64,000 nt of DNA from Roseibacillus sp. (GCA_051251855.1 JBPOGI010000002.1:288001-352000); one strand, 5' to 3'. Counted from the first letter of the stretch, positions 12,468 to 34,597 are shown. Numbers and translations are program-made. The notes: generated from the sequence alone by a model not told the origin.

Positions 12468-12656
12468 ATGAAGCGATTTTCTAGCAGCTTTCTCTCCTTT
12501 CTTGGTGCTGTTCCCCAATCTGTCTTGGAGCCTACTCATCCCAAAGGAGGGGTGCCCGTTTCTTCCCCGCAGCGGGAGGACTTGCGAAAAGAGCAAGCTC
12601 TTGCCAAGGCGCTTAAGTCTACTTCCTTGGCTTCTAGCGAATTCCAAGAAAACTAG
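12468..12656 (+). CDS. Possible small hypothetical protein
   Basis: 62-aa ORF filling the gap, converging on the rfbB stop; no motif. Confidence 0.25.
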   Translation: MKRFSSSFLSFLGAVPQSVLEPTHPKGGVPVSSPQREDLRKEQALAKALKSTSLASSEFQEN

Positions 12657-13618: not shown

Positions 13619-13888
13619 AATGCTGTAAGCAAGATACTCTGCTCTGTGGTCGGGTGATAGGCTGCATTTTTGCCAAGTGCGGCATTTCGGAGAAGGGCCC
13701 TTGGAATGAAAGAGGGGGAGTGGTCGGAAAAAGGGGCAACTTCTCACCTCAATCTCGCCATTTGTCTTGCATCATTTCGGCTCTCCAGTCAGAAGAGCGG
13801 CGCTCCATACGGACGCGTTCTGACAAGCAGGCGACTCCCCGGATGGAGTGAACCTTAAGCGGTCTCCTCAGAGGCCAAACGGCAGAAC

Positions 13889-18836: not shown

Positions 18837-21320
18837 ATGCGTAAAACCCCTGCATCTTTCCAAGAGGAAGCAAAGCCCCTTCTCAATCAGTTTCTTGCAA
18901 GAGTGAAGTACGTAGAGTGCCCCTGCTTTCGTGCCTTGAGCCTTTGCCTTTTGAGTGGATTTTCGTTGTCGTTGAATCAGGCTTTGGGACAAGAGATTCC
19001 CGGTTGGGATTTGGTTTGGTCGGATGAATTTACGCAAGCAGATGGAACTGGGCCTGATTCTTCGAAATGGGGTTACGATATTGGGAGAGGTTCCAATGGT
19101 TGGGGAAATGCCGAACTGCAATACTACACCAGCCGAACCGACAATGCTCGTATTGAGAATAACGAGTTGGTGATCGAGGTGAGGCAGGAGAACAACTATG
19201 CGAACTCAGGAGCGAATTACACTTCGGCGCGCCTCCTGACGCAGGATAAGTGGGATTGGACTTACGGTCGCTTCGAAGCTCGCATCAAAGTGCCGAGTGG
19301 TAGTGGTTTGTGGCCTGCCTGTTGGATGTTGGGCAACAATATCGACACCGTGAGTTGGCCTCAATGCGGAGAAATCGATATCATGGAGTTTGTAGGTCGC
19401 TTGCCGCAGGAGATTTTTGGAACAATCCACGGGCCTGGCTATGCGGGTGGAGCTTCCTTTGGAAATATCTACGACTTTGGGTTCGATGTCGCGGATGATT
19501 ACCACGTGTATGTGGTGGAATGGGAGGAAGACCTGATTCGATGGTATGTGGACGGCATTCTCTATCATACTGCCGAACCTAGTGATGTCGCTCCTAACGA
19601 GTGGGTCTTCGATCATGGCCAATTCATGCTGCTCAATGTAGCGGTAGGCGGAAACTTTGGGGGAACCTTGGACCCGGCAGTGACTTTTCCAAAGCAGATG
19701 CTCGTGGATTATGTACGAGTGTATGCGGCGGAAGGTGATGGCAATGTCTTAATGAATCCAGGTTTGGAGTCGGGGGATTTGAGTTCGTGGACTCCCTACG
19801 ATGCTGCAGGGGCGAATGATCCGGGAGCTTTCGTTGAGTCGACGAGTTCGACCTATTACAATGGAGGAAACGGAGGAGGCGACAATGTACTGACTCATTC
19901 GGGAACGTATGTGGCGAAGGTCTTTGGAGACTTTATCGGGGCTGAGAACTTTAATGGCTTTTATCAAGATGTTGCTGCGGCTCCGGATACGACTTGGAGC
20001 GCAGGTGGTTTTGCGCTCACTCATCCTCAGGATCTGATGTCGGGGAATAATACCGCATGGCTGGAAGTGAGCTTCCGTGATGGCTCGGGAACTGTCTTAG
20101 GGCTCTACCGTTCGGATGTTTTGACGTCAGCAAATGTGACGCCGGGGGCTTGGATGGCTTTGTCGGTAAGTAATGAGATAGACCCAAATACTTTTGCGGT
20201 TTTAGGGACGACTTCGGAACTGGAGGCTCCAGCGGGGACGACGATGATTCGTTTCCAAACGGTTTACCGACAAGATGGAGGCAACGATGGGGGATCGATG
20301 TATTTTGATGATCTGAGTTTGGTTGAGATTGTGGTGGTGCCATTGGAAGCTTGTTTTGAAAAAGGAACACTTCTTGAGTGGACTGCAGGAAGCTCGTCGA
20401 GTACTTACCAGCCTCAAACATCTCTCGATGGTCTTTCTTGGGATGACCTTGGTGATATTATTGTTGGTGATTCTGTGACTTCGTTTTTCGCTGCGGAGGA
20501 AGCTGCCTTCTATCAGGTAATTGAAACGACATCGGGGACGACCGGAAACGGGGTTCAGAATCCAGGCTTTGAAGTTGCAGAGGCTCAGATTCATCCCAGC
20601 GTTGGTGCCACCCAGTGGACCATTGCAGGTGCTGAAGATACTGACCCATCCAATGGATTGGCGACGATGACAGCGGAAAGCTCTTACTCCACTTTTACTC
20701 CTCGTAGTGGAAGTCGCATGTTGGTTTTTGAAAGCACCACTCCTCCTGCGCCGGCGGGCGTGAACGCTCCCTACTCGGATGTAAGGAGTGCTCATATCGA
20801 TGTGGATGGTGATACGAGCTATGAACTCTCATTCTATGCGGCGCATGTGATGAAGATCGGAGGAGCGAATCCTCAGGTGAATATTCGATTCTACAACTCG
20901 GGAGGAGCCTATGTAGGTGATGCCGGGTTCGAGAGCTTTTCTTCGCTTGGTTCCACTTGGACGGAAGTGACAAAGACCTTCACCGCTCCTGCCGAGGCGG
21001 CCTTCGCTGAGGTTTCTTGGATTCAAGCCCTTGGCGCTGGCAATGACTGGCATTGGGTAACTCTCATCGACGATGTCGAAATTCTAACGGATAATCTTCC
21101 CGGAACGGATACGGTTCTCCCGACTGTGGTGGAAGAAGGCTATCAGATTTCCTGGCCTTCAGTGTTGGGAAGAAATTACCAGGTGACTTCGAGCGCAGAT
21201 CTGATTGATTTTACAACCGTTGAAGGCTCATTTACGGGCGATGGAACAATGAAGAATCATGCGGGGGCCGCGAATGAGCCTCAGAGGTTCTTTAGGGTAG
21301 AGGAAGTGGTTCTTCCCTAG
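18837..21320 (+). CDS. Secreted GH16 glycoside hydrolase (laminarinase-like) with two CBM4-like modules
   Basis: WSDEF, WGNAELQYY, YTSARL, WPQCGEIDIME (ExDxxE). NPGLE and NPGFE...IDDV jelly-roll modules. Confidence 0.92.
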   Translation: MRKTPASFQEEAKPLLNQFLARVKYVECPCFRALSLCLLSGFSLSLNQALGQEIPGWDLVWSDEFTQADGTGPDSSKWGYDIGRGSNGWGNAELQYYTSRTDNARIENNELVIEVRQENNYANSGANYTSARLLTQDKWDWTYGRFEARIKVPSGSGLWPACWMLGNNIDTVSWPQCGEIDIMEFVGRLPQEIFGTIHGPGYAGGASFGNIYDFGFDVADDYHVYVVEWEEDLIRWYVDGILYHTAEPSDVAPNEWVFDHGQFMLLNVAVGGNFGGTLDPAVTFPKQMLVDYVRVYAAEGDGNVLMNPGLESGDLSSWTPYDAAGANDPGAFVESTSSTYYNGGNGGGDNVLTHSGTYVAKVFGDFIGAENFNGFYQDVAAAPDTTWSAGGFALTHPQDLMSGNNTAWLEVSFRDGSGTVLGLYRSDVLTSANVTPGAWMALSVSNEIDPNTFAVLGTTSELEAPAGTTMIRFQTVYRQDGGNDGGSMYFDDLSLVEIVVVPLEACFEKGTLLEWTAGSSSSTYQPQTSLDGLSWDDLGDIIVGDSVTSFFAAEEAAFYQVIETTSGTTGNGVQNPGFEVAEAQIHPSVGATQWTIAGAEDTDPSNGLATMTAESSYSTFTPRSGSRMLVFESTTPPAPAGVNAPYSDVRSAHIDVDGDTSYELSFYAAHVMKIGGANPQVNIRFYNSGGAYVGDAGFESFSSLGSTWTEVTKTFTAPAEAAFAEVSWIQALGAGNDWHWVTLIDDVEILTDNLPGTDTVLPTVVEEGYQISWPSVLGRNYQVTSSADLIDFTTVEGSFTGDGTMKNHAGAANEPQRFFRVEEVVLP

Positions 21321-21350: not shown

Positions 21351-22031
21351 CTAAGAAGTTGATTGAGCATTTTCGTTGAATCGAAGAATTGAAACGTTTT
21401 TGGGGCGGCTTTCTGTCGCTAAGTGGCAGACGAAGTCTTGGCCGCAGTCGATGGCGGTCAGCTGCATAATGGCTCTGTGACTGGAGGAGATACTTGCGAA
21501 GTGGGGAAGATCGGTTTCAACGTCACAGGGTTCGATTTCAAAGCCTGTTCCCAAGGCTTTCAAGTAGGCTTCTTTTGCGGTCCAGAAGCGGTAAAAGGTT
21601 GTGAGGAGCTGGTCTGCTGTGAGCTCGAAGAGGGTCGCCTGTTCTGTGTGGGTGAGGACTCTCTTGGCGAGTTCTTTTAAGTCTTCTAGGGGGAGGTTTT
21701 TTTCAAGATCGATGCCGAGGGAGGGGGCTGTTGAGACGCCGAGAACGCTGAGTCCCTCGGTGTGCGAAATGTTGAACTCCAATCCGGGGAGGGAGGGTTT
21801 CCCCTGGTTGCTTTCTTCGAAAACGAGGTCTCGGGGATGCTGGGCGAGGTAGTTGGCGAGAATGATTCGTTTAGCGTTTTGAGTGAAGGCGTAGCGTTGG
21901 CGGTCTCTTTCAAAACGGTAGCTCTCTAAGCGGGCGCATTCTTCCTTGTTTAAGCGTGCGGTCTCAATTTCACGATGCTCTAACAGCCAAAGATGAACTT
22001 CATCACAGGCTGGCAGGGTAGGGGTGGTCAT
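21351..22031 (-). CDS. Sfp-type 4'-phosphopantetheinyl transferase
   Basis: GKP, FNISHT, GIDLE, WTAKEAYLKA; starts 3 nt after the megasynthase stop. Confidence 0.95.
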   Translation of the reverse strand: MTTPTLPACDEVHLWLLEHREIETARLNKEECARLESYRFERDRQRYAFTQNAKRIILANYLAQHPRDLVFEESNQGKPSLPGLEFNISHTEGLSVLGVSTAPSLGIDLEKNLPLEDLKELAKRVLTHTEQATLFELTADQLLTTFYRFWTAKEAYLKALGTGFEIEPCDVETDLPHFASISSSHRAIMQLTAIDCGQDFVCHLATESRPKNVSILRFNENAQSTS

Positions 22032-22034
22032 GGT

Positions 22035-25000
22035 CTAGACACGGTTTCCGAGGAATCCTCGTAACTTGGCTGCGAGGGTGGTGACGTGAGGTTCTTGGAA
22101 AATAGTGAGATGCTCGCCGGGAATGGTGATGACTTTAAGGTCGCCACGGACATAGCCTTCCCAGCCGAGGTGCGGCGGGTAGATGACGCCGTCGCCTTGG
22201 TCTTCGGCAGTGAAAAGCACGACATCGCCATCGTAGGCTTTGGGTGAGTAGCGTCTCATTGCTTTGTCGTGGGCTTCGCGCACGATGACCGTTTGGATCT
22301 TTGGCCCGACGTCCATGCCGGTAGAAGTTGCGACGCTGGCGGCGGCCTTCTCACTCTGGACCTTGAGCTTGTTCACTAATCCTTCGCCAAAGCGTCCGCT
22401 GAGCTTGCCTACGCGACCGACCCAAGACCTATCCGAGTTTTCCGACCATTGGCGGGAGGCGCGTTCAGCAAGGGAGAGGTAGCGTGGAGCCACTGAGGGA
22501 TTGTCGGTGTCGAAGAGGCAGAGGAGTTCAACTTCGTCACCGGCTGCCTTGAGTTGCTGTGCGATTTCGTAGACTACAATGCCACCGAAGCAATAGCCAC
22601 CTAACAGGTAGGGACCTTCTGCTTGTACAGTTTTGATTTGCTTGAGGTAGGTCTTGGCCGTTTCTTCGATGGTGGGAGCAACATCTCCTTCTCCTGAGAG
22701 AGCGGGTGCTTCAAGGGTGTAGAAGGGCCTGTCCTTGGCCAAGCCATCGGAAAGCTGGCGATAAATGAGGGTGCCTCCATCGCCGCCGTGGATGCAGAAT
22801 AGAGGGGATTTTTCGCCCTTCTTGTGAAGAGCCGTGAGGCTGGCCGGAGTCGCTTCGACTGGCTCGCGTGGGGCGAAGCGGGCGGCGAGTTGTTCGATGG
22901 TGGGAGCTTCGAACAAAGTCGAGAGGGGGAGCTTCTTTCCGAACTCTTTGTCGATTTGATTGAAGAGCTTGAGCGCTTGAAGGGAGTGGCCTCCGAGGTC
23001 GAAGAAGGATCGATTAACGGGAAGGTCCGCGGTGCCGAGGACTTTACTCCAAATGGCGGCCATGCGCGTTTCGGTTTCGCCTTGCGGAGCGCGCTCGGAT
23101 TCTTGCGCTGGGGCGTCGTAGCTTTCGAGTTGAAGAAGGGCGCGGTCATCGACTTTGCCGTTTTCGGTAACGGGAATGGTTTCGACGAGAACGATGCGGG
23201 AAGGGATGAGGTGACCCGGCAAGAAAGACTGCAGAAAGATCTTGGCATCAGCCTCGGTGAGGTCGGTGTCTTGAGATGTGAGGTAGGCTACGAGAGTTTT
23301 CTCCTCGGCGTTTTCCCCTTGAGCGACCACGCGTGCTTGGGTGACGTCATGGTGACGGCAAAGCGCTTCTTCGATTTCAGCAGGGTCGATGCGGAAGCCT
23401 CGGATTTTGACTTCGTTGTCGGTTCGGCCCAAGAATTCGATGACGCCGTCGGGGCGATAACGAGCGCGGTCACCAGTGCGGTAGAGCTTGCTGTCGTTCT
23501 CGGATGAGAAGGGGTTGTCAATGAAGCGCTCGGCAGTGAGGGCCTCGTTCTGATAATAGCCGCGTGCCAGTCCATCGCCACCGATGTAGAGCTCACCCTC
23601 GGACATGGGAGGGAGTGGGTTGAACTGTTTGTCTAACAGGTAGACTTCGGTGTTTGAGATGGGTTTGCCAATTGGGACGGAGGCGTTTTCCAGATCGGCG
23701 GATGTGATGGTGTGACAGCAGGTGAAGGTGGTGTTCTCGGTAGGCCCGTAACCGTTGATAAGCTTGAGGTTCGGTAACTGGTTAAGAACTTTGGCAACGT
23801 GATGCTTGGAGAGTACGTCTCCACCGGCGAGGAGTTGCTTGAGGGGGCGGAGTACTTCGAGGTTCTCGTCGACCATGAGTTGAAAGAGTCCTGATGTGAG
23901 CCATAGCGTCGAGATGTCGTAGTCGCGAATGTGACTGGCGATGGTGTCGAGGCTAGGTGCGCCGGGTGGCAAGAGGACGAGCTTGCCGCCATTCAGGAGG
24001 GGAGCCCAAATCTCGAAGGTAGAAGCGTCGAAGGAAAGGGAGGAGGCTTGGAGGTAGACTTGGTTCTCGTCGAGTTGAGCGTAGTTGGTATTGCGAACCA
24101 ATCGTACGATGCCGCGATGAGTGACTTCGACTCCCTTAGCATTGCCGGTAGACCCTGAAGTGAACATCAGGTAGGCGAGGTCGGTGGGGCCGTTTTTGAG
24201 AGGGAGGTTCGAGGTTCCGCTGTCGTTGGCGTCTTCGTCATTGAGAACTTCATCAACGGAGATGACTTTTCCTGAGAAGGACGTGACTTGCTCCTGATAA
24301 TTGGAACGAGTCAAGAGCACGGGCGCGTCGGTCTGGTCCAAGAGGCTGGTGATCCGCTCAACGGGGTAGCAGGGGTCAATAGGAAGGTAGGCTCCTCCTG
24401 CTTTCATCACTGCAAGAGCGGAAATAATGAAGTCGAAGGACCGATCCAGCACGACCGGGATAGGCTGGCTGGCTTTTACGCCGGCTTCGCGAAGTTGAAC
24501 CGCGAGGCGATTGGCAAGGCGGTTGAGAGTTTGGTAGCTCATCGACCAGTCGCGCATTTGGAGGGCGGTTCGCTCAGGGTAGGTGGCGGCGACTTCTTCA
24601 AAGAGTTGCTGCACTGTCGAGGTGCGAGGATAGTCCGTGGTGTTGTTGGCGGACAAGGGGAGCGGGCGTCCCATGGTCTCAGGCGCGGGGGCGGGGAGCT
24701 CTTTACGAGTGGGTCCCTCGGGCTTGTTCGCTATTTCTTCGAGGATTCCGCGATATTGCTTCATCCAGCTTTCGACGGTGCTGTGCTCGAAGACCGCGGT
24801 ATTGAAGTGGCACTCGATACTGACTCCGTTTTTGGATTCAACGAGGTTGAGGAAGAGAAGTTGGTTGACGAAAGACTTCGGGCTATCAAGGAACTCGGTT
24901 TCGAGTCCGTCGAAGGGTTTAAAGTAGTCCATGCGCTCGAGGTTGAAGCCAACTTCGGTCAAGGGCATGCGGCCGGGACGGCGTTGCAGTTGAAGCTTGG

Positions 25001-28000
25001 GGACGAGTTGACCGTAGGTGCAGTCTTGATGCTCGTAGGCTTCGAGAACGCGAGAAGCGATGTCTTTGACGAGTTCGCTGAAGGGTTGGCTCGGTGCGAC
25101 CTTGGCGCGGAGAGGGAGAAAGTTGACGCAGTGACCGACGAGGTTCTCCAAGCCTTGGGAGGACTGCCCAGCGGCGGGGATGCCGATGACGAGGTCTCCT
25201 TGACCGGTGAGGCGGTTGAGGAGAATGCTAAATGCGCTCAGGGTGGTTGCGTAAAGAGTAGCCCCTGATTTGGCTCCAGCTTTGCGTAGCTTCTTCAGAA
25301 GGTCGGCATCGATGTTCTCGTGCAAAGTTGAGCCTGAGAAGGTGCGGTGATTAGGGAAAGGACGGTCTGTTGGGAGATTGAGGAGGGGGACGGTGTCGGG
25401 ATACTGTGAGACCCAGTAGTCGAGATGCGGGTCAGGAGTGTTGGACTGTTCGCGCTCGGCGCGGGCTAAGGCGTAGTTGGCGAAGCTCGCAGAGGGGGTG
25501 AGGGGATTGCTTTGTCCTTGGGAGAAGGCGTTGTAGCAATCGCTCAGGTTTTCGATGAGGACGTTAAAAGACCAACCGTCAGCCACCATATGGTGAGCGG
25601 TGAGGAAGAGGATGTGGCGGGTTTCGCTCACTTTGCTTAGCTTGGCTCGCACGAGGGGAGCTTTATCGAGATCGAACGGAGTGAAGGCCTGAGTCTGAGT
25701 GGCGAGACGGATGGCTTCTGCTTTGTCGTCTTCCGAGAAGGAGCTAATGTCGCGGAACTTGAAGGGGACTTGGACCTTGTCTGCGATTTCCCAAGTGTTG
25801 CCATCGAGGTCGAAGGTGGAGCGCAGGGCGTCGTGGTGATTGACGGCGGTGTTGAGTGCTTTTTCGAGAGCGGAACTGTCGAGGGGGCCGTCGAAGATAA
25901 GTGAGGTCGCTTCGTTGAAGGCGCAGGAAGCTTCGTGACCGAGTTGGCAGGCTAGCCAGATTTCCTGCTGGGCTTCGGTGAGCGGAAGTTCGGTGTGCTT
26001 CTTAGGTGCTGCAGGAGGGGCAACAGGGGCTGGAACTGGGAGAGGCTGGGCGGTGCCTTTTCCGAGGCGGGGAGAGGGACCGGTGAGCTGAGGCTCGCTG
26101 TTGATCTTGAGAGCTTCGGTCTCTTTGAGAAAGCCTGCCGCTTGCAGTTCGGCCACCGCCTCTTTAAAGGCACGAATGACATAGTCGATGTCCTCGTCGG
26201 TGTGGGTGGTGGTGATGTAGGAGGGGAAGCCTTCGAGGATGAAGACACCACGCTTGCGAAGGTGGAAGAAGAGAAGGTTGCCGTATTTGCAGTCCTCGCC
26301 GACTCGCACGAAGAAGCGGGAGTTGAGACCGGGGAGGCGGATGGAGACTTCATTGTCGACCATGAATTGGTCCACCGTCTTGTAGAGTCGCTCCGCCTTG
26401 GCATTGAGGTCAGCCCAGAGTTGCGGACCTTGCGCCTTGAGATGGGTGAGGACTGCGTGGGCAGCAGCGATGCCGAGGGGGTGGCGGACGAAGGTGCCTG
26501 CGAAGAAGGTGACGTCGCCTTCGGGGAAAGAGTCGTCGCCGTATTCCCAATGGCCACCGTCGAAGGTGTCCATGTATTTGGCTTTGCCGGCCACGATGCC
26601 GATGGGAAGTCCGCCGCCGATGACTTTGCCGTAGGTGGAGATGTCTGACTTGACGCCGTAGAAGCCTTGCGCGCCATGAGGGCCGTCGCGGAGTCCGCAA
26701 ATGACTTCGTCGAAGATGAGGAGAGCGTCGTTGTCGTCGGCGAGGGTGCGGAGTTCTTTAACGAATTCCTTGGGCTGGAACTCGGGGCGGCGACTTTGCA
26801 CGGGCTCAATCATGATGGCCGCGAGCTCGTGGGCGTGCTCTTTGAGAATCTCCATTGATTCTTCAGTGCCGTAGTCGAGCACGAGCATGTTAGAAACCGC
26901 GGACTTGGGCACGCCGGGCGCGCTGGGGAAGGTGCGGGGTTTCTTCTTGGCTTGGGAGCCACGGAGTAGGACTTCGTCGAAATTACCGTGGTAGTCTTTG
27001 GTGAAGACTGCGATTTTGTCTCGTCCGGTAGCAGTTCGTGCGAGGCGCATGGCGGCTTGGACCGCTTCGGAACCAGTGCAGACGAAGGAGCAACGCTCGT
27101 TGCCAGTCATCTCGCAGAACATTTGCGCGGTTTCGCCAGCGAGAGGGGTTTGGGGACCGACTTCGTAGCCGGACATCATCTGCTTTTGTACTGCTTCTAG
27201 AACGAAATCAGGAGAGTGGCCGAAGAAGCCGGGGCCAAAGCCGTTGAGGATGTCGATGTATTCGTTGCCATCGATGTCGAGGAGGCGGGAGCCTTTCGAT
27301 TGCTCGACCACGAGCTGGTAGATCATTTCTTTCCAGTTGCGATCGAATCCGGAGACGGTGCGTGGGTCGGCGTGGAAGCGGCGATACTTGGCGGTCCATT
27401 CTTTGGAAGATTTGGTGCGGGCCACGTAGCTGTTGACGAGTTGCTCGATGTGCTCGCGCTGTTGGGCGGTGAGGCTGTCGTCGGCATCTCGGCTGATGGT
27501 TGTGGTGGAGCCAGAGGCGGTGCCGGAAGTAGGTTTGTTTTCCTTAGCTTTCGAGGGCTGCGCAGTCGCAGAAGGAGAAGGGACGGCGGGGATTTGGGCG
27601 GCTGCGGGCTGGGGGGGAGGAGTAGGAGCCGCGGGGGTAGCGGGAATGCCTGCGAGCATCTGCATTTGAGCCTGCATGAACTGCATTTGCTGCATCTGCA
27701 TGTTCATCATTTGGGCCATCATGCCGGCTTGGTCGCCGCCGGGAGCGACCGTAGTGGTCGGGAAAGGTTGCTGAAGTGCTGGTTGCTGCAGTGCGGCTTG
27801 GGGAGCCTGTTCGGCGGGTGCTTCGACGGCGGGTGCTGCAGGTTGGAACTGGGAGGGGTCGGCTTCGTTGTCGAGATGGTTCACGATGTCGCCGATGGTG
27901 GGGAGTTCGGCGAGGAGCTGACGCATGGTGGTGGTCACACCAAAGGCTTTTTCGATTTCTTTGCTCACTTGGGTGAGCATGAGGGAGTCGAAACCAAGCT

Positions 28001-31000
28001 CAATGAGAGTGGCTTCGAATTCCATTTCTTCGGTTTCGATTCCGGAGAGGTCGTTGAGAACTTCACAAAGGCGTTCGTGAATCAAAGGCTTGCGATCAGT
28101 GGACATAACAGTGGGAACAGTTTGGTTGGGGACAGGGGAGGTGACCGCGACCGGCTGGGGAGCGGCTGGAGCGGCGAGAGTTTGGGGCGCTTGGGGGAGA
28201 GAAGGGAGTTCGGCAGCGAGAGACTTGGGTTCGATCCAGAATCGCTTGCGTTCGAAGGGATAGGTGGGAAGAGGAACGCGCTTGCGGACTTCGTCGCCAT
28301 TGTAGGCCTTCCAGTCTATGGTGTGGCCATGAATCCAAAGCTGTCCGAGGGCGAGCTGGAAGTGAAGCGCATCCGAGGCGTCGTCGGTGGCGTGGCCAGA
28401 GACCGAGAAGATGGCTTGTTTTGCCTTTTTGTCCGCGACCTGGCGGGAAAGGGTGGAAAGAGTTTGTCCGGGGCCGACCTCTAACAAGGTGGTCTCGGGA
28501 GATTCGCAGAAGTGTCCAGCAGCTTGGGTGAAGCGGACGGTCTTGCGCACGTGGGAAGCCCAGTAGTGCGAATCGGTGGCTTGTTCGTCGCTGAGCCATT
28601 CAGTGGTGACAGTGGAGCGGATGGGGATGGAAGGAGGATTGAGCTGAGCCTTTTCGATGACCTTTTGGAAGGGCTCGATAACTCCGTCCATCATCCAGCT
28701 GTGGAATCCGTGGGAGGTGTGGAGAGGTTTGGCTGCGATGTCTTGTTCAGTGAGAAGGGCGGTGAACTTTTCGAGTTCGTCGTGTGGTCCTGCAACGACG
28801 CAGAGTTCGGGGCCGTTGACGGCGGCGAGGTCGAGTTTTTCGGGGATGAGGGGAGTGAGCTTTTCTTCGCACAAGCGGACGGAGAGCATGCCGCCTTTTT
28901 CGACCGCTTGCATGAGAGCGCCGCGTTGGGCGAGAATGCTGAGGGCGTCTTCGAGAGAGAGGATGCCTGAGATGGTGGCGGCGACGAGTTCACCGACACT
29001 GTGGCCGACAAGGGCGGTGGGCTGGAGACCCCAGTGCATGAGGAGTCGGGCTTGGCAGTAGCTGAGGACAAAGATGGCGGGCTGGGCCATGATGGTCTGC
29101 TTGATGCGGAGGCCGGCGGCTTCTTGATCGGCATCGGGGTTTGGGAAAAGGGTGTCGCGGAGGTCCTCGCCGAGATGTGGTAAAAGGATTTCGGCGCAGC
29201 GGTCGAGTTCGGCGCGGAAGTAGGGCTCGGACTGATAAAGGTCGCGGCCCATGCCGACGGTTTGGGAACCTTGGCCGGGAAACATGAAGACGAGCGGGGC
29301 GTCAGCTTGTTTGGGAGTGCCTTTAACGGAGCGCGCTTTGTCGAGAGAGAGCAGGGAGTCGCTGACGAGGATTTGGCGCTTGGCGAAGTGTTTACGACCG
29401 ATGCGTAAGGTGTGGGCGACGTCGGCGGGGTTTGTGGAGCTATTGTTTGCGCCGTAGTTGACGAAGTTTTCTTTGGCTTGAGCGAGGGCTTCGTCGCTGC
29501 GAGCGGAGAGGGGAAAGAATTGGAAGGGGCGCAGAGAGGTAGAAGACTCCTGTTCGGGAGGCTCTTCTAAGATGACGTGAGCATTGGTGCCGCCGACACC
29601 GAAGGACGAGATGCCTGCGCGACGAGGAGCGTCTTTGGGATGCCAGTCGGTCAGGCTATCGTTGACGTGGAAGGGAGAGCTGGCGAAGTCGATTTTGGGA
29701 TTCGCTTTTTGAAAGTGGAGAGTGGCGGGGATCTTTCCGTGTTCGAGGGAAAAGGCGGTTTTGATGGTAGCGGTGACACCGGAGGCGATATCGAGGTGGC
29801 CAACGGTGGGTTTGACGGAGCCAAGAGCACAGCCCTGGTTGTGGGTCACACCGAGGTCGCGAAAGGCTTTGGTGAGACCAGCGACCTCGATGGGGTCGCC
29901 GAGGGGGGTGCCGGTGCCGTGGGCTTCGACGTAGGAAATGGTGGAGGGGTCGATGCCGGCGTCGGCGATGGCGTCTTTGATGACTCCGGCTTGGCCATCG
30001 ATGCTAGGGGCGGTGTAAGAGTGCTTGCGACCGCCGTCGTTGTTGAGGGCGCAGCCTTTGATGATCGCATGGATGTGATCGCCATCGCGCAGAGCGTCGT
30101 CGAGACGCTTGAGAAGCACGATGCCGGCGCCGTTAGAGAAAACAGTGCCAGTGGCTTGTTCGTCGAAGGTGCGGCAATGGCCGTCTTGGGATAGGATGCC
30201 GTCGGGGGTGAAGTAGTAGCCTTTTTTCTCGGGGAGAGTGATGGTGATTCCTCCCGCCATGGCCATGTCGCAGGCGTTAGCGCGCAGGCTTTGGCAGGCA
30301 GTGGAGATGGCGACGAGGGAAGTGGAGCAGGCGGTCTGCACCGTCATGGCGGGGCCGCGCAAGTTGAGCTTAAAGGCGACGCGGGTTGCGAGGTAGTCTT
30401 TGTCGTTGCCTAGCTCGGCTTGTAGGGTGCCGACTTGGATTTGGGGAATCCAGTCGGCGAGGAATTCGCGGTCGGTAGCGAGATTGGAAAGGGCGTAGGT
30501 GTCGAGGTAGTTGCCGGCCCAGAGCCCAATCTTGCCTTCGTACTCTTCGGAATTGTAACCGGCGTCTTCGAGGCAGTCCCAAGCGAGTTCGAGGAAGACT
30601 CGATGCTGGGGATCCATGAGCTTGGCTTCGTTGGGGAGGACTCCGAAGAACTTGGCGTCGAAGTTCTCGACGTTTTCCATGAGGCCTTTAACTGGCACGT
30701 AGCCGGGGTCGTTGCGGACTTTGGCAGGGTCAACGTTAGCGGAGAGGAGTTCTTCGTCGGTGAGTTGAGTGAGGCACTCTTTGCCGTCGACAAGATTTTG
30801 CCAGAAGGCTTGCACGTTGGGGGACTCGGGAAGGCGGCAAGACATGCCGACAATGGCGATGTCACGGCTTTGGTCGTTGTCCTTGGCTGGGGATGTTTGT
30901 TCGGCGGGAGCTTGTTCTTGCTCGGTTAGAAGCTTGGCTTGGGTGGCGACGGTCGAGTTTTGGAAAAGCTCTGCTGCGGTGAGAGGCTTTTGGAAATAGC

Positions 31001-32960
31001 GATTCAGTTTGGCGAGCAGTTGAATGACCTGAAGGGATTTTCCGCCGAGGTCAGCAAAGCGGTCGTGGCGACCGATAGGTGAGAGATGAAGGACTTCGGT
31101 CCAAAGTGAGGCGATTGCTTTCTCAGTTTCGCCTTGAGGGGACGTGAAAAGTTCCGAGAGCTCGGGGCGGCTCGCTGCTTGGGCGCGAATGTCGCTCGTG
31201 ATTTTGTCGACAGAAGAGCGCATCGCGATAGTGCGGTAGTCCTCTGAGGAAACGAGATTGGTGGCGTATTTGGAAGAGCTGCTTTGTGAGGGGGTGGGGC
31301 TTGCTTTGGCTGCAGGTCGCTGGGTTGCGGATTGGGCGACTTTGAGAGGAAAGCGATAGATGATTTCGTTACCAGCAGATTGAGCGTGTTTGCTTCCGAT
31401 GCCGTCGAGAAAGCCTCTGGCTGGGGTGTTGCGGTCGGTGGGAAGGAAGGGGAAGTGGATTTCGGTAGCCTCTGTTTGCTTCGCACTCTTGACTAACTGA
31501 GCGAGGATTTTTTGCTCTACTCCTTTGCCAAGAACGCGGCAACTTAGGAGGAAGGAGTCGACGTGAAGAGCTTCGTCTTTGGTTTCGAAAACGACCAATC
31601 CTACAAGCCCGTAGTCACCAAAGCGGTCACTAACTTTGACCGCGAGAATCTCTTTGCCGTTTTGCGAAAGAGAGGTCACTTCGTCTTCTTGGCGACGAAT
31701 GGTGGTGGTGTTGAACTGGTTGGTGCGCTGAGTAAGCTGAGCCAACCGGCTTTTGTTCTCCGAGGTGAGACCTTCGAAGCGAACCTTGAGCTTGAGTTCT
31801 TGTAGGAACGTTTCGTAGCTGGTGGCTTGCTCGCGGACTTCTTCGCGGGCGAGCATGGTCTGATACATCGCAGTACGTTGACTGTCTTCCTTGGTAGAAG
31901 AGTTCGGGAGGTCCAAGCGCCAGTGATGCTTAAGCAGGGTGGGGAATTTCTCGGTGTCTTGGGGAAGGAGAATGGTAGTGACCGTGGGGAGGGCGGCGGC
32001 CACTTCGGCGATTTCCATGGGGTTGTCGTCGATGAAGACAAAGGAATCGAGGGCGAGATTGAGCTGCTCGGCGAGGGCGGCGATATTTTTGGACTTAGCC
32101 TCCCAGTTGACTTTCCAGCCCACGATGTCTTCTTCGCGAAGAATCATGCCGGAATTCTTTTGGAAAACCTCGCGAACGTCGCTCTCTTCGTTTTTGGAGG
32201 CGAGACAGAGAATCATTCCAGCATCCATGCGTGACTTGAGGAAGTATTGCAGAGCTGCGTAAGGTTTAGTTATTTCGAGTTGTTCGGCGCCAATTTCGGC
32301 TGCGACTCCGGGCCAGAGGGTGGAATCGGCATCGACGACGAGGACTTTGGCGGGAGGAACGAGAGTGGCGTGAATCCGCCGCGCGATGAGGGTGGCGAGA
32401 GCATGGAAGTAGTCGTCGCGGTAGGGGAGGTGACCTTCTTGATCGGCGATGGGATCGAGGATGTCTTCGACTGGGTAGGAGCTGAGGAGCTTTTTCTCAG
32501 AGACGATTTGAAGCTTTAGCGTGCGGCATTGTTCGACAATCTCCGTGGAGAGCTCTTGGACGAATGCTGCGAGGACGGGGTCTAGGGCGATGCCTTCCGA
32601 AGGCTCTGTGAGAATGATGAGGTATCGTGAAGGAGTGGGGCTGGCTTGGGAGCGCAGAATGTCGAGGAACTCGCGAGTGTTCTTGCGGAGCTCCTCCTTC
32701 CATTCGGATGAGCCGAGCTCCCCAAAGCGCTGCCAGTCCTCGGGACGAAGGAGAATAAGGTTGAGGCCGTTTTCGTTGCGATGGAAGGGGGAGTTGGGGT
32801 CGAGAAGGCTTTGAAAAACTTGGTTGTAGGGAGCGTAATTGATGTCCGCTGGGAGATGGAGGCGCTTGAACCAGTGGTTGAGGGCAGGGGTGAGCGGCTC
32901 TGCGGTGAAGGTGGCCGAGATTTCGAGAGAATATCGGGAGCTGGAGGGGGATAGGCTCAT
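22035..32960 (-). CDS. Hybrid PKS/NRPS: FkbH-ACP-KS-AT-ACP-aminotransferase(III)-C-A-PCP-TE
   Basis: FkbH: DADSTLW, FIDDNP, QRTNQFN, LLSCRV. ACP: LGGKSL. KS: TACS, HGTGT, GHL. AT: GHSVG, HGFH. ACP: GFDSL. AMT: FDEV, GKVIGGG. C: HHMVADG. A: TSGSTG, YGPTE, YRTGD. PCP: GGHSL. TE: GYCFG. Confidence 0.96.
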   Translation of the reverse strand: MSLSPSSSRYSLEISATFTAEPLTPALNHWFKRLHLPADINYAPYNQVFQSLLDPNSPFHRNENGLNLILLRPEDWQRFGELGSSEWKEELRKNTREFLDILRSQASPTPSRYLIILTEPSEGIALDPVLAAFVQELSTEIVEQCRTLKLQIVSEKKLLSSYPVEDILDPIADQEGHLPYRDDYFHALATLIARRIHATLVPPAKVLVVDADSTLWPGVAAEIGAEQLEITKPYAALQYFLKSRMDAGMILCLASKNEESDVREVFQKNSGMILREEDIVGWKVNWEAKSKNIAALAEQLNLALDSFVFIDDNPMEIAEVAAALPTVTTILLPQDTEKFPTLLKHHWRLDLPNSSTKEDSQRTAMYQTMLAREEVREQATSYETFLQELKLKVRFEGLTSENKSRLAQLTQRTNQFNTTTIRRQEDEVTSLSQNGKEILAVKVSDRFGDYGLVGLVVFETKDEALHVDSFLLSCRVLGKGVEQKILAQLVKSAKQTEATEIHFPFLPTDRNTPARGFLDGIGSKHAQSAGNEIIYRFPLKVAQSATQRPAAKASPTPSQSSSSKYATNLVSSEDYRTIAMRSSVDKITSDIRAQAASRPELSELFTSPQGETEKAIASLWTEVLHLSPIGRHDRFADLGGKSLQVIQLLAKLNRYFQKPLTAAELFQNSTVATQAKLLTEQEQAPAEQTSPAKDNDQSRDIAIVGMSCRLPESPNVQAFWQNLVDGKECLTQLTDEELLSANVDPAKVRNDPGYVPVKGLMENVENFDAKFFGVLPNEAKLMDPQHRVFLELAWDCLEDAGYNSEEYEGKIGLWAGNYLDTYALSNLATDREFLADWIPQIQVGTLQAELGNDKDYLATRVAFKLNLRGPAMTVQTACSTSLVAISTACQSLRANACDMAMAGGITITLPEKKGYYFTPDGILSQDGHCRTFDEQATGTVFSNGAGIVLLKRLDDALRDGDHIHAIIKGCALNNDGGRKHSYTAPSIDGQAGVIKDAIADAGIDPSTISYVEAHGTGTPLGDPIEVAGLTKAFRDLGVTHNQGCALGSVKPTVGHLDIASGVTATIKTAFSLEHGKIPATLHFQKANPKIDFASSPFHVNDSLTDWHPKDAPRRAGISSFGVGGTNAHVILEEPPEQESSTSLRPFQFFPLSARSDEALAQAKENFVNYGANNSSTNPADVAHTLRIGRKHFAKRQILVSDSLLSLDKARSVKGTPKQADAPLVFMFPGQGSQTVGMGRDLYQSEPYFRAELDRCAEILLPHLGEDLRDTLFPNPDADQEAAGLRIKQTIMAQPAIFVLSYCQARLLMHWGLQPTALVGHSVGELVAATISGILSLEDALSILAQRGALMQAVEKGGMLSVRLCEEKLTPLIPEKLDLAAVNGPELCVVAGPHDELEKFTALLTEQDIAAKPLHTSHGFHSWMMDGVIEPFQKVIEKAQLNPPSIPIRSTVTTEWLSDEQATDSHYWASHVRKTVRFTQAAGHFCESPETTLLEVGPGQTLSTLSRQVADKKAKQAIFSVSGHATDDASDALHFQLALGQLWIHGHTIDWKAYNGDEVRKRVPLPTYPFERKRFWIEPKSLAAELPSLPQAPQTLAAPAAPQPVAVTSPVPNQTVPTVMSTDRKPLIHERLCEVLNDLSGIETEEMEFEATLIELGFDSLMLTQVSKEIEKAFGVTTTMRQLLAELPTIGDIVNHLDNEADPSQFQPAAPAVEAPAEQAPQAALQQPALQQPFPTTTVAPGGDQAGMMAQMMNMQMQQMQFMQAQMQMLAGIPATPAAPTPPPQPAAAQIPAVPSPSATAQPSKAKENKPTSGTASGSTTTISRDADDSLTAQQREHIEQLVNSYVARTKSSKEWTAKYRRFHADPRTVSGFDRNWKEMIYQLVVEQSKGSRLLDIDGNEYIDILNGFGPGFFGHSPDFVLEAVQKQMMSGYEVGPQTPLAGETAQMFCEMTGNERCSFVCTGSEAVQAAMRLARTATGRDKIAVFTKDYHGNFDEVLLRGSQAKKKPRTFPSAPGVPKSAVSNMLVLDYGTEESMEILKEHAHELAAIMIEPVQSRRPEFQPKEFVKELRTLADDNDALLIFDEVICGLRDGPHGAQGFYGVKSDISTYGKVIGGGLPIGIVAGKAKYMDTFDGGHWEYGDDSFPEGDVTFFAGTFVRHPLGIAAAHAVLTHLKAQGPQLWADLNAKAERLYKTVDQFMVDNEVSIRLPGLNSRFFVRVGEDCKYGNLLFFHLRKRGVFILEGFPSYITTTHTDEDIDYVIRAFKEAVAELQAAGFLKETEALKINSEPQLTGPSPRLGKGTAQPLPVPAPVAPPAAPKKHTELPLTEAQQEIWLACQLGHEASCAFNEATSLIFDGPLDSSALEKALNTAVNHHDALRSTFDLDGNTWEIADKVQVPFKFRDISSFSEDDKAEAIRLATQTQAFTPFDLDKAPLVRAKLSKVSETRHILFLTAHHMVADGWSFNVLIENLSDCYNAFSQGQSNPLTPSASFANYALARAEREQSNTPDPHLDYWVSQYPDTVPLLNLPTDRPFPNHRTFSGSTLHENIDADLLKKLRKAGAKSGATLYATTLSAFSILLNRLTGQGDLVIGIPAAGQSSQGLENLVGHCVNFLPLRAKVAPSQPFSELVKDIASRVLEAYEHQDCTYGQLVPKLQLQRRPGRMPLTEVGFNLERMDYFKPFDGLETEFLDSPKSFVNQLLFLNLVESKNGVSIECHFNTAVFEHSTVESWMKQYRGILEEIANKPEGPTRKELPAPAPETMGRPLPLSANNTTDYPRTSTVQQLFEEVAATYPERTALQMRDWSMSYQTLNRLANRLAVQLREAGVKASQPIPVVLDRSFDFIISALAVMKAGGAYLPIDPCYPVERITSLLDQTDAPVLLTRSNYQEQVTSFSGKVISVDEVLNDEDANDSGTSNLPLKNGPTDLAYLMFTSGSTGNAKGVEVTHRGIVRLVRNTNYAQLDENQVYLQASSLSFDASTFEIWAPLLNGGKLVLLPPGAPSLDTIASHIRDYDISTLWLTSGLFQLMVDENLEVLRPLKQLLAGGDVLSKHHVAKVLNQLPNLKLINGYGPTENTTFTCCHTITSADLENASVPIGKPISNTEVYLLDKQFNPLPPMSEGELYIGGDGLARGYYQNEALTAERFIDNPFSSENDSKLYRTGDRARYRPDGVIEFLGRTDNEVKIRGFRIDPAEIEEALCRHHDVTQARVVAQGENAEEKTLVAYLTSQDTDLTEADAKIFLQSFLPGHLIPSRIVLVETIPVTENGKVDDRALLQLESYDAPAQESERAPQGETETRMAAIWSKVLGTADLPVNRSFFDLGGHSLQALKLFNQIDKEFGKKLPLSTLFEAPTIEQLAARFAPREPVEATPASLTALHKKGEKSPLFCIHGGDGGTLIYRQLSDGLAKDRPFYTLEAPALSGEGDVAPTIEETAKTYLKQIKTVQAEGPYLLGGYCFGGIVVYEIAQQLKAAGDEVELLCLFDTDNPSVAPRYLSLAERASRQWSENSDRSWVGRVGKLSGRFGEGLVNKLKVQSEKAAASVATSTGMDVGPKIQTVIVREAHDKAMRRYSPKAYDGDVVLFTAEDQGDGVIYPPHLGWEGYVRGDLKVITIPGEHLTIFQEPHVTTLAAKLRGFLGNRV

Positions 32961-32963
32961 GAA

Positions 32964-33755
32964 CTAGAGGATGTTTTGGACGCCGATGTTGACGGGATCG
33001 TGGCGATCATTACTGGCAGGGAAGTCTTGCCGCCATTTTCGGACAGAGGCGAGGTCGAGAGGTGCGGAAAGGATTTCGACGGAACCACTGCCCTCTGCGA
33101 GTACTTCGCCTTTGGGATCGACGATGAGAGAGCAGCCAGGGAAGTCGAGATTCGGATCGGAACCCACGCGATTGACGCCGATAACGTAGGCTTGGTTCTC
33201 GATGGCGCGTGCTTTAAGCAGGGTGACCCAGTGTTCGACGCGAGGAGTAGGCCAATTGGCGAGGACGATGAGAAGCTCGGCAGCAGGAGTGGCGAGGCGA
33301 AAAATTTCGGGGAAGCGTAGATCGTAGCAGACGAAGGGAGCGAGGGTCCAGTCGCCGAGCGGCATCGTTTTGACCCAAGAACCAAAAGAGCCAGCATCTT
33401 TCTCACCAGAGGGGGTGAAAGGGTGGATTTTGGCATAATCGCCGACTACTTTCCCAGATGAGTCGATGAGGATGGCCTCGTTGGTGAGGAGATTTTCACG
33501 ATTGGAGACCATTCCGGCTATGATTGCGGCTTGGTATTTTTGGGCGATTTTGGAGAGAAAATCGAGTGTGGGTGAGTTGGCCGGGGTTTCAGCAATCTTT
33601 GCGAAATCCATGCTGAATCCTGTCGCAAACATCTCAGGGAGAACGATTAAGGAGTTTGGTTCAATTTTTTGGCCAGACAGTAGGTTCTCCAAGATCTCGA
33701 AGTTCGAGGCCTTGTCTTCCCAAATGGGATTAAGCTGACAGCAGTATACGCGCAC
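32964..33755 (-). CDS. Carbon-nitrogen hydrolase (omega-amidase/YafV/Nit2-like)
   Basis: E-K-C triad: LPEMF, YAKIHPF, VCYDLRFPE; ARAIENQ. Ends 3 nt before the megasynthase ATG. Confidence 0.92.
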   Translation of the reverse strand: MRVYCCQLNPIWEDKASNFEILENLLSGQKIEPNSLIVLPEMFATGFSMDFAKIAETPANSPTLDFLSKIAQKYQAAIIAGMVSNRENLLTNEAILIDSSGKVVGDYAKIHPFTPSGEKDAGSFGSWVKTMPLGDWTLAPFVCYDLRFPEIFRLATPAAELLIVLANWPTPRVEHWVTLLKARAIENQAYVIGVNRVGSDPNLDFPGCSLIVDPKGEVLAEGSGSVEILSAPLDLASVRKWRQDFPASNDRHDPVNIGVQNIL

Positions 33756-33913: not shown

Positions 33914-34597
33914 CTAAGCTAAATGAAGCGTCGAATGGTGCAACTTGGGTTCGTGGGAAAGGTTGGGAAATTCTTCCCAATAGTTCCATGCGATTTCGGT
34001 GTCGGTGACCTTGAGATATGAGCGAGACCATGTCTGAGCGTCGGGTCGGTTCATGCGTACGGTGAAGGCGGAAAGAGGGGTCTGCTGGGGGTTCTGAAAG
34101 TTCTCAAGGTTGTTGCTTTCTTGAAATGCTTTTTGGCGAGCGGCTCTTACCTTTTCGAAACAAAAGGAGGAGCTGGTGACCGGAATCTGAGGTTGGAACG
34201 TGTTCAAGGTTTTCCCGCTCCAGCTAAAGGCTGCGACCTTACCTTTCTGAAAGAAGACGAGGTCAAAAGGTTTGGCTCCGGAGCACTTGGCTGAGAAGTT
34301 TTCTCGGATACTCGCGAATGACTTACAATCTGCGAGTTCCGTGACAACAAGTCCTCTGCTTTTTGAAAAAAACTGGCCGCTTTCCTCGTGCCAGCGGTTG
34401 AGAAGACAGGCGACCAAGCCATGCTCGTTAGCCAGTATCCAAGTGCCGCCCGCCTCTGGGTCGGTGGGTGCCAGATAGCGGGTGCCATTTTCAGTTTTAC
34501 GAGCGCTGGGGGGCTCAGCTCGACGGCGTGTTTTCAGCTCGTCTCGATTAAAAAAGACTTCGAGGCTATCTTGGCCGCGCCAAGTGAGTGTACACAT
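33914..34597 (-). CDS. NRDE/TANGO2-family protein (Ntn-hydrolase-like)
   Basis: MCT start, FNRDE, GGTW and SRG motifs. Confidence 0.88.
   Translation of the reverse strand: MCTLTWRGQDSLEVFFNRDELKTRRRAEPPSARKTENGTRYLAPTDPEAGGTWILANEHGLVACLLNRWHEESGQFFSKSRGLVVTELADCKSFASIRENFSAKCSGAKPFDLVFFQKGKVAAFSWSGKTLNTFQPQIPVTSSSFCFEKVRAARQKAFQESNNLENFQNPQQTPLSAFTVRMNRPDAQTWSRSYLKVTDTEIAWNYWEEFPNLSHEPKLHHSTLHLA

Follow-up and report, generated by a model that had tools for sequence, protein, structure and literature searches.

An FkbH-primed PKS-aminotransferase-NRPS cassette of Roseibacillus sp. and its possible role in exopolysaccharide decoration

The window analysed is a stretch of 64,000 nucleotides from the marine Verrucomicrobium Roseibacillus sp. 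(GCA_051251855.1 JBPOGI010000002.1:288001-352000; the genome is named G000 below). ORF calling reveals a cassette of three intact genes, all transcribed from the minus strand in the order amidase, megasynthase and phosphopantetheinyl transferase (PPTase):

32964..33755, minus strand: nitrilase-superfamily amidase (YafV/MtnU-like), 263 aa, triad E41-K109-C143, likely an omega-amidase for 2-oxoglutaramate
22035..32960, minus strand: megasynthase FkbH_N-FkbH-T-KS-AT-T-AMT-C-A-T-TE, 3641 aa
21351..22031, minus strand: Sfp/HetI-type PPTase, 226 aa, motifs GIDLE and FWTAKEAYLKA

The three genes and the 3-nt gaps between them, reported in a first-pass annotation of this DNA, are borne out by the ORF coordinates and by the start and stop letters (TAG-ttc-ATG and TAG-acc-ATG). 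No transporter or regulator gene adjoins the cassette at this locus, as also claimed there: it is bordered by TANGO2, on the same strand and 158 nt upstream, and by a convergent GH16 gene. Neither is retained as a cluster member, nor are a glycerate kinase gene (15873-16967) and a UDP-glucuronate-decarboxylase-like gene (12653-13747) nearby. In congeners TANGO2 and the latter two genes are found on separate contigs from the cassette, and GH16 is absent from the cassette flanks. The megasynthase reading frame is not a product of chance, since it stays open over 10.9 kb and has full-length orthologues with 42-81% identity. It is the sole NRPS/type I PKS, and the PPTase the sole Sfp-like one, found in the genome by tblastn. 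A scan for promoters and terminators was uninformative: promoter-like sites number 7, for 3.4 +/- 1.9 expected, without any on the coding strand upstream of the amidase gene, and terminator-like sites number 20, for 18.4 expected.

The megasynthase comprises the following parts, from its amino to its carboxyl terminus:

32361..32933, minus strand: FkbH_N-like domain, aa ~10-200 (PF21211 lead; PDB 3SLR is matched weakly in its N-terminal part)
31389..32351, minus strand: FkbH glyceryl transferase/phosphatase, DADST motif with D210 and SCR motif with C474
30921..31142, minus strand: carrier T1 (Ser642)
29556..30866, minus strand: ketosynthase (C878, H1014, H1055)
28338..29291, minus strand: acyltransferase (S1321; HGFH)
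27861..28088, minus strand: carrier T2 (Ser1659)
26136..27473, minus strand: PLP aminotransferase of the MycA-AMT type (D2084, K2112)
24699..25997, minus strand: condensation domain (HHMVADG)
23136..24602, minus strand: adenylation domain, code DAFWLGGTFK (Val-type)
22866..23093, minus strand: carrier T3 (Ser3326)
22038..22838, minus strand: thioesterase (nucleophile Cys3457, position-I Asp3484, His3617) with an amphipathic, basic lid helix

Pfam assigns KS, AT, Aminotran_3, C, A and TE domains and three PP-binding stretches, and finds no KR, DH or ER in the megasynthase; the flanking ORFs match CN_hydrolase on the amidase side and ACPS on the PPTase side. FkbH is assigned by TIGR01686 (aa 204-524, 314 bits for a cut-off of 147). 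Together they confirm the order FkbH-ACP-KS-AT-ACP-AMT-C-A-PCP-TE, lacking reductive domains, of the first-pass annotation. The likeness of the amino terminus to FkbH_N (PF21211) is an Atlas lead with a score of 0.93-0.94, the family being present on 29-68% of the cluster members.

FkbH domains load glyceryl units from 1,3-bisphosphoglycerate. Their DxD and SCR motifs are kept in 55/55 aligned FkbH-type proteins, among which the DADST variant is unique; the others have mostly DADNT or DADHT. The remaining catalytic motifs are intact as well as FkbH Asp210/Cys474: the KS Cys-His-His set, the AT, AMT Lys2112 and the C-domain HHxxxDG. The AT motif HGFH, of a kind assigned to malonyl-specific ATs, is replaced by HAFH in 48/55 FkbH-type family members. 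KS-AT-ACP-AMT is followed by C-A, as in the beta-amination module of the MycA/McyE type, and the best PDB match of the AMT is that of MycA (6KFM/6KFU, E 2e-123 over 443 aa), with intact PLP motifs. The A-domain code, whose positions are numbered relative to GrsA, is common to 20/52 FkbH-type proteins, the remainder having near variants. DAFWLGGTF(K) is the listed Val code of malacidin MlcM, and the pocket is closest to that of the Val-activating PA1221. The glycerate-malonate-amination chemistry proposed at first, and its choice of valine as the probable amino acid, thus hold as predictions. From the AMT match to MycA and the A-domain pocket we infer that the unit made would be 3-amino-4,5-dihydroxypentanoyl-Val.

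The beta-amination order is common to the cassette, MycA/ItuA (mycosubtilin, iturin) and McyE. MycA/ItuA start from a fatty acyl-AMP, whereas the cassette has an FkbH-loaded starter, a single amino-acid module followed by the TE, no lipopeptide chain and a link to exopolysaccharide (EPS) genes. Neither the fatty acyl-AMP ligase starter nor the multi-module chain of iturin-type lipopeptide synthetases is found in the megasynthase. Glyceryl-carrier starters or extenders made by FkbH are known from OzmB, ZmaN, tetronate pathways and loading modules of the BryA/OocJ type. Unlike these systems, the megasynthase has no DH, KR or MT in its loading module and no oxidation to hydroxymalonyl, and its FkbH feeds a KS-AT-T-AMT module directly. 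The presence of FkbH does not prove its use, since the OocJ FkbH module is described as non-functional in a passage of PMC4552970. Searches of open-access papers yielded no characterised cluster of the same architecture, which agrees, within that scope, with the initial statement that no such pathway is known.

The amidase has the nitrilase Glu-Lys-Cys triad (E41, K109, C143), common to it and to the omega-amidases YafV, MtnU and Nit2. Its best NCBIfam match is PRK10438 (YafV), at 171 bits for an equivalog cut-off of 249, while deaminated-glutathione amidase scores only 86 bits; PDB matches are 3P8K, 2E11, 1F89 and 2W1V. The gene is located directly upstream of the megasynthase in 17/30 non-duplicate FkbH-type loci and stands first in AMT clusters with different starters too (G045, G049, G057 and G602). 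Of 61 relatives, 12 have the amidase without an AMT match at E <= 1e-70, and no orthologue of it was found in 4 AMT carriers. Glutamine is the amino donor of the MycA AMT, as stated in part of PMC3870968, and an omega-amidase renders glutamine transamination irreversible according to a section of PMC6302742. The cassette enzyme likely clears the 2-oxoglutaramate left by glutamine transamination. Gene order couples it to the aminotransferase of an assembly line, whereas YafV/MtnU are coupled to a methionine-salvage transaminase. The pairing makes it possible to test whether a glutamine transaminase and an omega-amidase are coupled in such a line.

The TE nucleophile Cys3457 lies in a GYCFGG motif. 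Such a cysteine occurs in 8/51 FkbH-type TEs and is specific to this lineage. The first-pass annotation mentions neither it nor the FkbH_N-like domain, and assigns no role to the amidase. A cysteine TE might close a strained ring (beta-lactam or beta-lactone), as SulM and ObiF1 do, and yield a warhead antibiotic. This is very improbable here: 43/51 family members keep serine, the Gln-Cys-Asn motif of SulM is replaced by Tyr-Cys-Phe, valine offers no beta-nucleophile, and the sequence and fold matches listed for the TE include neither SulM nor ObiF1. The triad Asp3484 follows beta-6 at position I, as in AB3403, and is invariant in 20 aligned TEs; it is not at position II, the feature of SulM and ObiF1, and the assignment as a beta-lactam/lactone thioesterase is rejected on this ground. 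The top sequence and fold matches include the Pks13 TE. A basic, amphipathic lid helix is seen in most of the 20 TEs. It gives only a hint of membrane contact, since amphipathicity is common in lid helices and the window analysed was chosen as the best one.

The megasynthase architecture is common in Verrucomicrobiales (51/120 database proteins examined). In genus g8 an identical architecture is found directly upstream of, and co-directional with, the genes of an exopolysaccharide operon, barrel-Wza-Wzc-WcaJ-Wzx (G598, G541, G657 and G578, which are 4/4 of the fetched genomes having that layout). The amidase, megasynthase and PPTase genes of G565 are head-to-head with barrel-Wza-Wzc-WcaJ-GT-GNAT-PIG-L, in G510 and G465 the megasynthase adjoins WcaJ-GT4-GH99-like genes, and two metagenome loci carry the barrel-Wza-Wzc layout (L124) or the barrel (L117). 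The same enzyme adjoining a slime-polysaccharide operon in many relatives suggests that its product is a polysaccharide decoration rather than a free-standing antibiotic. In view of this linkage, and of the almost perfect co-occurrence of megasynthase and exopolysaccharide genes in the family, the original view of a functionally self-contained operon for a free small molecule is not supported.

Among 401 genomes sampled from the order, whose members are major users of polysaccharides in the sea and in soil, the AMT core is present in 92, the barrel in 84 and both in 59, of which 41 have the two within 14 kb on one contig; these counts overstate significance because kin are not independent. The barrel without AMT occurs in 25/401 genomes, 23 of them in family f5 (E 1e-27 to 1e-52). 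The reverse occurs in 33/401, and 4/4 of those checked carry the other EPS gene set. Family f1 (193 genomes including G000) has 38 AMT carriers, 37 barrel carriers and 37 genomes with both, adjacent in 30; one has the AMT hybrid without barrel, and none has the barrel without AMT. G022 is a genome with an AMT hybrid and no barrel. In genus g5 AMT and barrel are each found in 12/47 genomes, and these are the same 12.

The association is by linkage in the relatives and by co-occurrence only in G000, whose orthologous EPS locus is on another contig (C8:408-420 kb) with WcaJ at C1:64 kb. Both cassette and EPS locus are present, unlinked, in 5/9 genomes of the genus. In G003 the EPS locus is present and the PPTase gene sits at a contig end. 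G006, a genome 90% complete, carries the EPS locus, and no cassette was found in it. The G005 amidase gene is followed not by the UDP-glucuronate-decarboxylase-like gene but by a match to a different epimerase gene, the one located after the G004 cassette. The separate contigs in G000, and the movement of the three genes as a unit with changing flanks in this genus and several other loci, would suit a cluster that is complete in itself and yields a free conjugate of amino-sugar acid and valine, unconnected with polysaccharide. Such a self-contained cluster is rather improbable in view of the family f1 counts and of G005, which has neither megasynthase nor EPS barrel. G008 likewise lacks both cassette and EPS locus.

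The linkage extends to sister enzymes. A valine-primed family, A-T-KS-AT-T-AMT-C-A-T-TE, shares AMT clade and back end with the cassette, but the chain is started by an A domain bearing a Val-type code instead of by FkbH, leading to a predicted vicinal diamine; its second residue is often of the Gly or beta-Ala type and the amidase is mostly not adjacent (it is in G602). Its hosts are Rhodobacteraceae, Bacteroidota, Acidobacteriota and rhizobia, often with the genes inside EPS loci. Glycan genes are present in the flanks of 10/20 A-domain-primed loci, the other 10/20 having none within ~5 kb, and also accompany these enzymes in L025, L026 and 2/3 plasmid records. Across the family starters are FkbH, A or NRPS, with second-residue codes of the Val, Gly and beta-Ala type.

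Several systems acylate glycans from a carrier: Dlt D-alanylation, Vibrio cholerae O1 tetronate and butirosin AHBA transfer, and the Pks13 TE transfers its product to trehalose. The cassette resembles them in an acyl unit built on a phosphopantetheinyl carrier and, as proposed, passed to a sugar. They rely on separate ligase and carrier proteins or on a lipid PKS, while here one multimodular PKS-AMT-NRPS would deliver an N-acyl amino acid unit.

The best reading of these sequence comparisons is that the cassette belongs to an EPS-decoration system from which it has become detached. The proposal that it builds a 3-amino-4,5-dihydroxypentanoyl-valyl unit, likely handed to the cell's Wzx/Wzy-type exopolysaccharide, has about an even chance of being right. 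The PPTase would prime the three carriers and FkbH would load glyceryl from 1,3-bisphosphoglycerate onto T1. KS/AT would add malonate and the AMT would aminate the 3-keto group, taking the amino group from glutamine as MycA does; this step would be irreversible because the amidase would hydrolyse the 2-oxoglutaramate by-product. C-A-T would then add Val or a similar branched residue. Finally the acyl-Val (+C10H18N2O4, 230.127 Da) would either be placed by the TE on the lipid-linked repeat unit, at a hydroxyl or an amine of a sugar, or be set free for a different transferase to use. The cassette lies away from the EPS genes in G000 and its genus.

The candidate transferase or acceptor-forming enzymes TupA, PIG-L and GNAT are patchy among carriers. 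A TupA-like ATP-grasp, found in 1/61 relatives and neither in G000 nor in other cassette carriers among the 61, is rejected as the ligase. PIG-L deacetylase was not found in 3/5 genomes tested (G598, G541 and G657), so that an amine made by PIG-L is rejected as universal acceptor, and the GNAT of G565 has no match in G000. That no universally shared enzyme of this kind was found, together with the terminal TE of the family, speaks for release of 3-amino-4,5-dihydroxypentanoyl-Val as a free EPS/biofilm signal, regulator or non-covalent additive, in the form of a linear acid (C10H20N2O5, [M+H]+ 249.144), a lactone or a diazepanedione. Genetic linkage, including co-transcription with EPS genes, is also compatible with a co-regulated free molecule. 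Yet the loci scanned show no gene for a transporter, receptor or regulator accompanying the cassette. The EPS linkage is maintained in spite of differing starters and second residues, as would be expected of a structural decoration more than of a specific signal. A free molecule is unlikely, though to be kept in mind.

The unit might instead be attached to something else in the envelope that is exported along with the EPS system, for instance a surface protein of the PEP-CTERM type, a lipid anchor or a cross-link. This is suggested by the resemblance of barrel, Wza and Wzc to the PEP-CTERM/exosortase-associated TIGR03016, 03027 and 03007 (all below cut-off) and of a neighbour of sister loci to TIGR03100. 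However, the linked genes serve repeat-unit assembly and export (WcaJ, Wzx, GT4) and no exosortase was found among the neighbours scanned, making such a target more improbable still than a self-contained cluster.

Decoration of the carrier's own exopolysaccharide would re-assign many "orphan secondary metabolite" clusters to cell-surface chemistry, and could be the reason why no small molecule tied to such clusters was found in the literature. The amine-bearing, amino-acid-linked substituent would likely bear on adhesion and charge, and on how well glycan-degrading enzymes or phages are resisted. The broader proposition, slightly more apt to fail than to hold, is that the megasynthase makes amino-deoxy-pentonoyl-valine from a glycolytic intermediate, that its TE acylates exopolysaccharide and that it belongs to a widespread swappable-starter class with an omega-amidase ratchet. 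If true, it would define a class of assembly-line glycan tailoring, with glycerate, valine or peptide starters, that genome-mining tools count as orphan antibiotic clusters. For Roseibacillus, the consulted part of PMC11427321 mentions only an antiSMASH NRPS/PKS match. The megasynthase of G004 has a 98%-identical match to a Roseibacillus persicicus entry, and such cultured relatives of the carriers make the EPS-decoration reading directly testable.

The cassette is formed by the three genes that the first-pass annotation had proposed, since an ORF and gap check on the window DNA returned the same ORFs, strand and two 3-nt gaps. They and the genes around them are arranged as follows:

Window 15873-16967, plus strand: glycerate kinase gene, 4.4 kb from the cassette
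Window 18837-21320, plus strand: secreted GH16 protein of 827 aa that includes a CBM4-like stretch; its gene and the PPTase gene converge
Window 21351-22031, minus strand: PPTase
Window 22035-32960, minus strand: 3641-aa megasynthase
Window 32964-33755, minus strand: amidase
Window 33914-34597, minus strand: TANGO2/NRDE-family gene, co-oriented with the cassette and 158 nt upstream of it

Pfam and NCBIfam agree with the domain order described earlier (FkbH, T, KS, AT, T, class-III aminotransferase (AMT), C, A, T, TE) and with the absence of reductive domains from the megasynthase. Its FkbH domain matches TIGR01686 in NCBIfam with 314 bits against a cut-off of 147, and an Atlas lead gives a resemblance of the first ~200 residues to FkbH_N. 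Catalytic motifs are complete throughout the protein, the motif check locating FkbH D210 and C474, carrier serines S642, S1659 and S3326, KS C878/H1014/H1055, AT S1321, AMT D2084/K2112, HHxxxDG in the C domain, D2978/K3269 in the A domain and TE C3457/D3484/H3617. No further NRPS, type I PKS or Sfp-like PPTase was found by tblastn in the whole 4.96-Mb genome. The closest named homologue of the megasynthase is from Roseibacillus persicicus, an entry 98% identical to the protein of congener G004.

The TANGO2/NRDE-family gene could be co-transcribed with the cassette; it is unlinked to it in congeners. No GH16 gene was seen beside congeners' cassettes; one also flanks the sister cluster, primed by an A domain instead of FkbH, in a Rhizobium exopolysaccharide (EPS) locus. 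The glycerate kinase was rejected as part of the glycerate-primed line because none of the five congeners searched has it on the contig of the cassette or amidase.

FkbH domains load glyceryl units. The AT motif, HGFH here versus HAFH in 48/55 family members, is of a type that we take to be malonyl-specific. The best solved relative of the AMT is that of MycA (E 2e-123), whose amine donor is Gln according to passages of PMC3870968. The A-domain code DAFWLGGTF(K), common to 20 of the 52 FkbH-type family proteins and closely varied in most others, is identical to the Val code of MlcM given in part of PMC9113097, and the pocket is nearest to PA1221, Val-activating in the relevant section of PMC8857579. 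PMC4552970 has FkbH loading unusual units and mentions a non-functional example. Together the MycA likeness, Val code and pocket, AT motif and glyceryl loading lead to the predicted unit 3-amino-4,5-dihydroxypentanoyl-Val, with computed masses of 248.137 Da as free acid and 230.127 Da as acyl residue. The chemistry is plausible and the prediction reasonable though unproven, with the caveat that the diol intermediates could lactonise early.

Among 120 database proteins from two sequence searches (8 + 112), the full FkbH architecture is present in 51, the sister form A-(T)-KS-AT-T-AMT-C-A-T-TE is seen in 35, and the remaining ones are partial or longer. Matches bearing names are Verrucomicrobiota for the FkbH type and include Rhodobacteraceae and Cellvibrionaceae for the A-primed type. 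A tree of 122 AMT sequences (FastTree, without topology test) interleaves the FkbH-, A- and NRPS-primed forms, so the starter was exchanged on a common back end. A split copy (L019:6189-15613, genome G048) comprises two ORFs and scores weakly for the AMT; no TE was found in it, the amidase is elsewhere in the genome, and the copy is possibly decaying. At L021:6925-10393 (G058) a stand-alone 612-aa FkbH protein precedes an ORF of 489 aa that looks like a membrane protein and may be similar at its start to AlgI/MBOAT acyltransferases; glyceryl transfer to a glycan is possible for this pair. Loci L022 and L023 have comparable stand-alone FkbH genes. Small genes recurring within sister clusters (L027:11488-12357, L108:14703-15623, L094:15569-16441) code a TIGR04325 methyltransferase, a cupin-like protein and a TIGR03100-like hydrolase, all without match in the window's genome, G000.

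The operon had also been called self-contained, which holds for gene order and not beyond it, as relatives show linkage to or co-occurrence with EPS genes. Of 20 A-primed loci scanned, 10 have glycan genes in their flanks, as do loci L025 and L026 and 2 of 3 plasmid records. A search for the EPS export barrel that adjoins FkbH-type locus L124 covered the same 401 Verrucomicrobiales genomes as that for the AMT: 92 have the AMT, 84 the barrel, 59 both, 33 the AMT only, 25 the barrel only and 284 neither, and in 41 of the 59 the two are at most 14 kb apart on one contig. In the window's family the two genome sets almost coincide (38 AMT, 37 barrel, 37 both, 30 adjacent). Of the seven genomes in which the two are not adjacent, three belong to the window's genus (G000, G004 and G007) and four are drafts with the systems on separate contigs. 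An FkbH megasynthase of identical architecture, at 42-46% sequence identity to the window's, is directly upstream of barrel-Wza-Wzc-WcaJ-Wzx in G598, G541, G657 and G578, and G565 has a complete amidase-megasynthase-PPTase cassette divergent from barrel-Wza-Wzc-WcaJ-GT-GNAT-PIG-L. In G510 and G465 the megasynthase is beside WcaJ-GT4-GH99-like genes. Two genomes with a detached cassette, G038 and G059, have the GH99-like gene of this second set elsewhere (the set is whole in G059); it was not found in control genome G044.

G000 carries the following genes at other sites:

Contig C8, 408-420 kb: orthologous EPS locus with Wzc, Wza, barrel, zinc-ribbon-like protein, Wzx-like protein, methyltransferase, PIG-L and three GT-like genes
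Contig C1, 64 kb: WcaJ
Contig C8, 424565-428631 (L182:8665-12731), minus strand: another barrel-Wzc-Wza trio, lying 12 kb away from the EPS locus above
Contig C6, 250534-251415 (L183:7534-8415), minus strand: SAM methyltransferase, ~58 kb from the cassette

Within the genus, cassette and EPS locus are both present and unlinked in G000, G001, G002, G004 and G007; G003 has the EPS locus and a PPTase at a contig end, G006 the EPS locus alone, and neither system was found in G005 and G008. The C6 methyltransferase is homologous to genes adjoining sister clusters L025, L026, L031 and L178. The five relatives out of 61 in which it was found all carry the AMT, and it is a possible trans-acting tailoring enzyme. 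As for the two trios on C8, G045 has a similar second trio close to its first.

The best reading, of middling confidence, is that the cassette belongs to an EPS-decoration system from which it has become detached. Linkage is equally compatible with covalent decoration and with a co-regulated free molecule, and a free molecule associated with EPS ranks second, as a rather unlikely alternative. Against decoration stand 23 genomes of family f5 with a distant barrel but without AMT, the absence of a universal transferase among genomes examined, the non-independence of related genomes in the co-occurrence counts, and the 33 AMT-only genomes, of which no more than 4 were examined for a different EPS set. 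The flanks of many FkbH-type loci, the window's included, show no glycan gene. A free metabolite unrelated to EPS comes third and is improbable. Every cassette part is of a known kind, and no characterised example of the combination was found in literature searches on FkbH/aminotransferase PKS-NRPS lines, a scope outside which MIBiG and EPS linkage fall. The window contributes the glycerate-primed single-protein form, detachment with co-occurrence retained, the amidase pairing and a Cys thioesterase.

Of 30 non-duplicate FkbH-type loci with upstream DNA visible, 17 have the amidase gene directly upstream of the megasynthase; the gene also heads AMT clusters with NRPS or A starters in G045, G049, G057 and G602. 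Among 61 relatives scanned it clusters with the AMT hybrid in 10 of the 11 having both, and occurs alone in 12, including G005. In 4 AMT carriers no amidase orthologue was found. The gene is thus an accessory independent of the starter. At L152:1-985 G005 keeps the amidase gene, followed directly by the epimerase gene found behind the cassette in G004, and lacks megasynthase and PPTase; nesting of its amidase within the cluster-linked clade suggests secondary loss. The best family is YafV-like, with a score below cut-off, and the catalytic triad is intact. Omega-amidases removing 2-oxoglutaramate render Gln transamination irreversible, as stated in part of PMC6302742, and the cassette amidase probably has this role.

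Eight of the 51 FkbH-type TEs have Cys as nucleophile, every one of them inside the window's well-supported clade; the remainder have Ser. By the position-I/II criteria for TE class taken from PMC11298585, the triad Asp occupies position I, like that of AB3403, whereas SulM and ObiF1 have it at position II; formation of a strained ring is unlikely. The predicted TE model (pLDDT 82.5) best matches the AB3403, Skyxy-type, Pks13 and NocB TEs. In the related split FkbH-type clusters L131 and L132 the TE has Cys and lacks the catalytic His in the alignment, and may be inactive or act differently.
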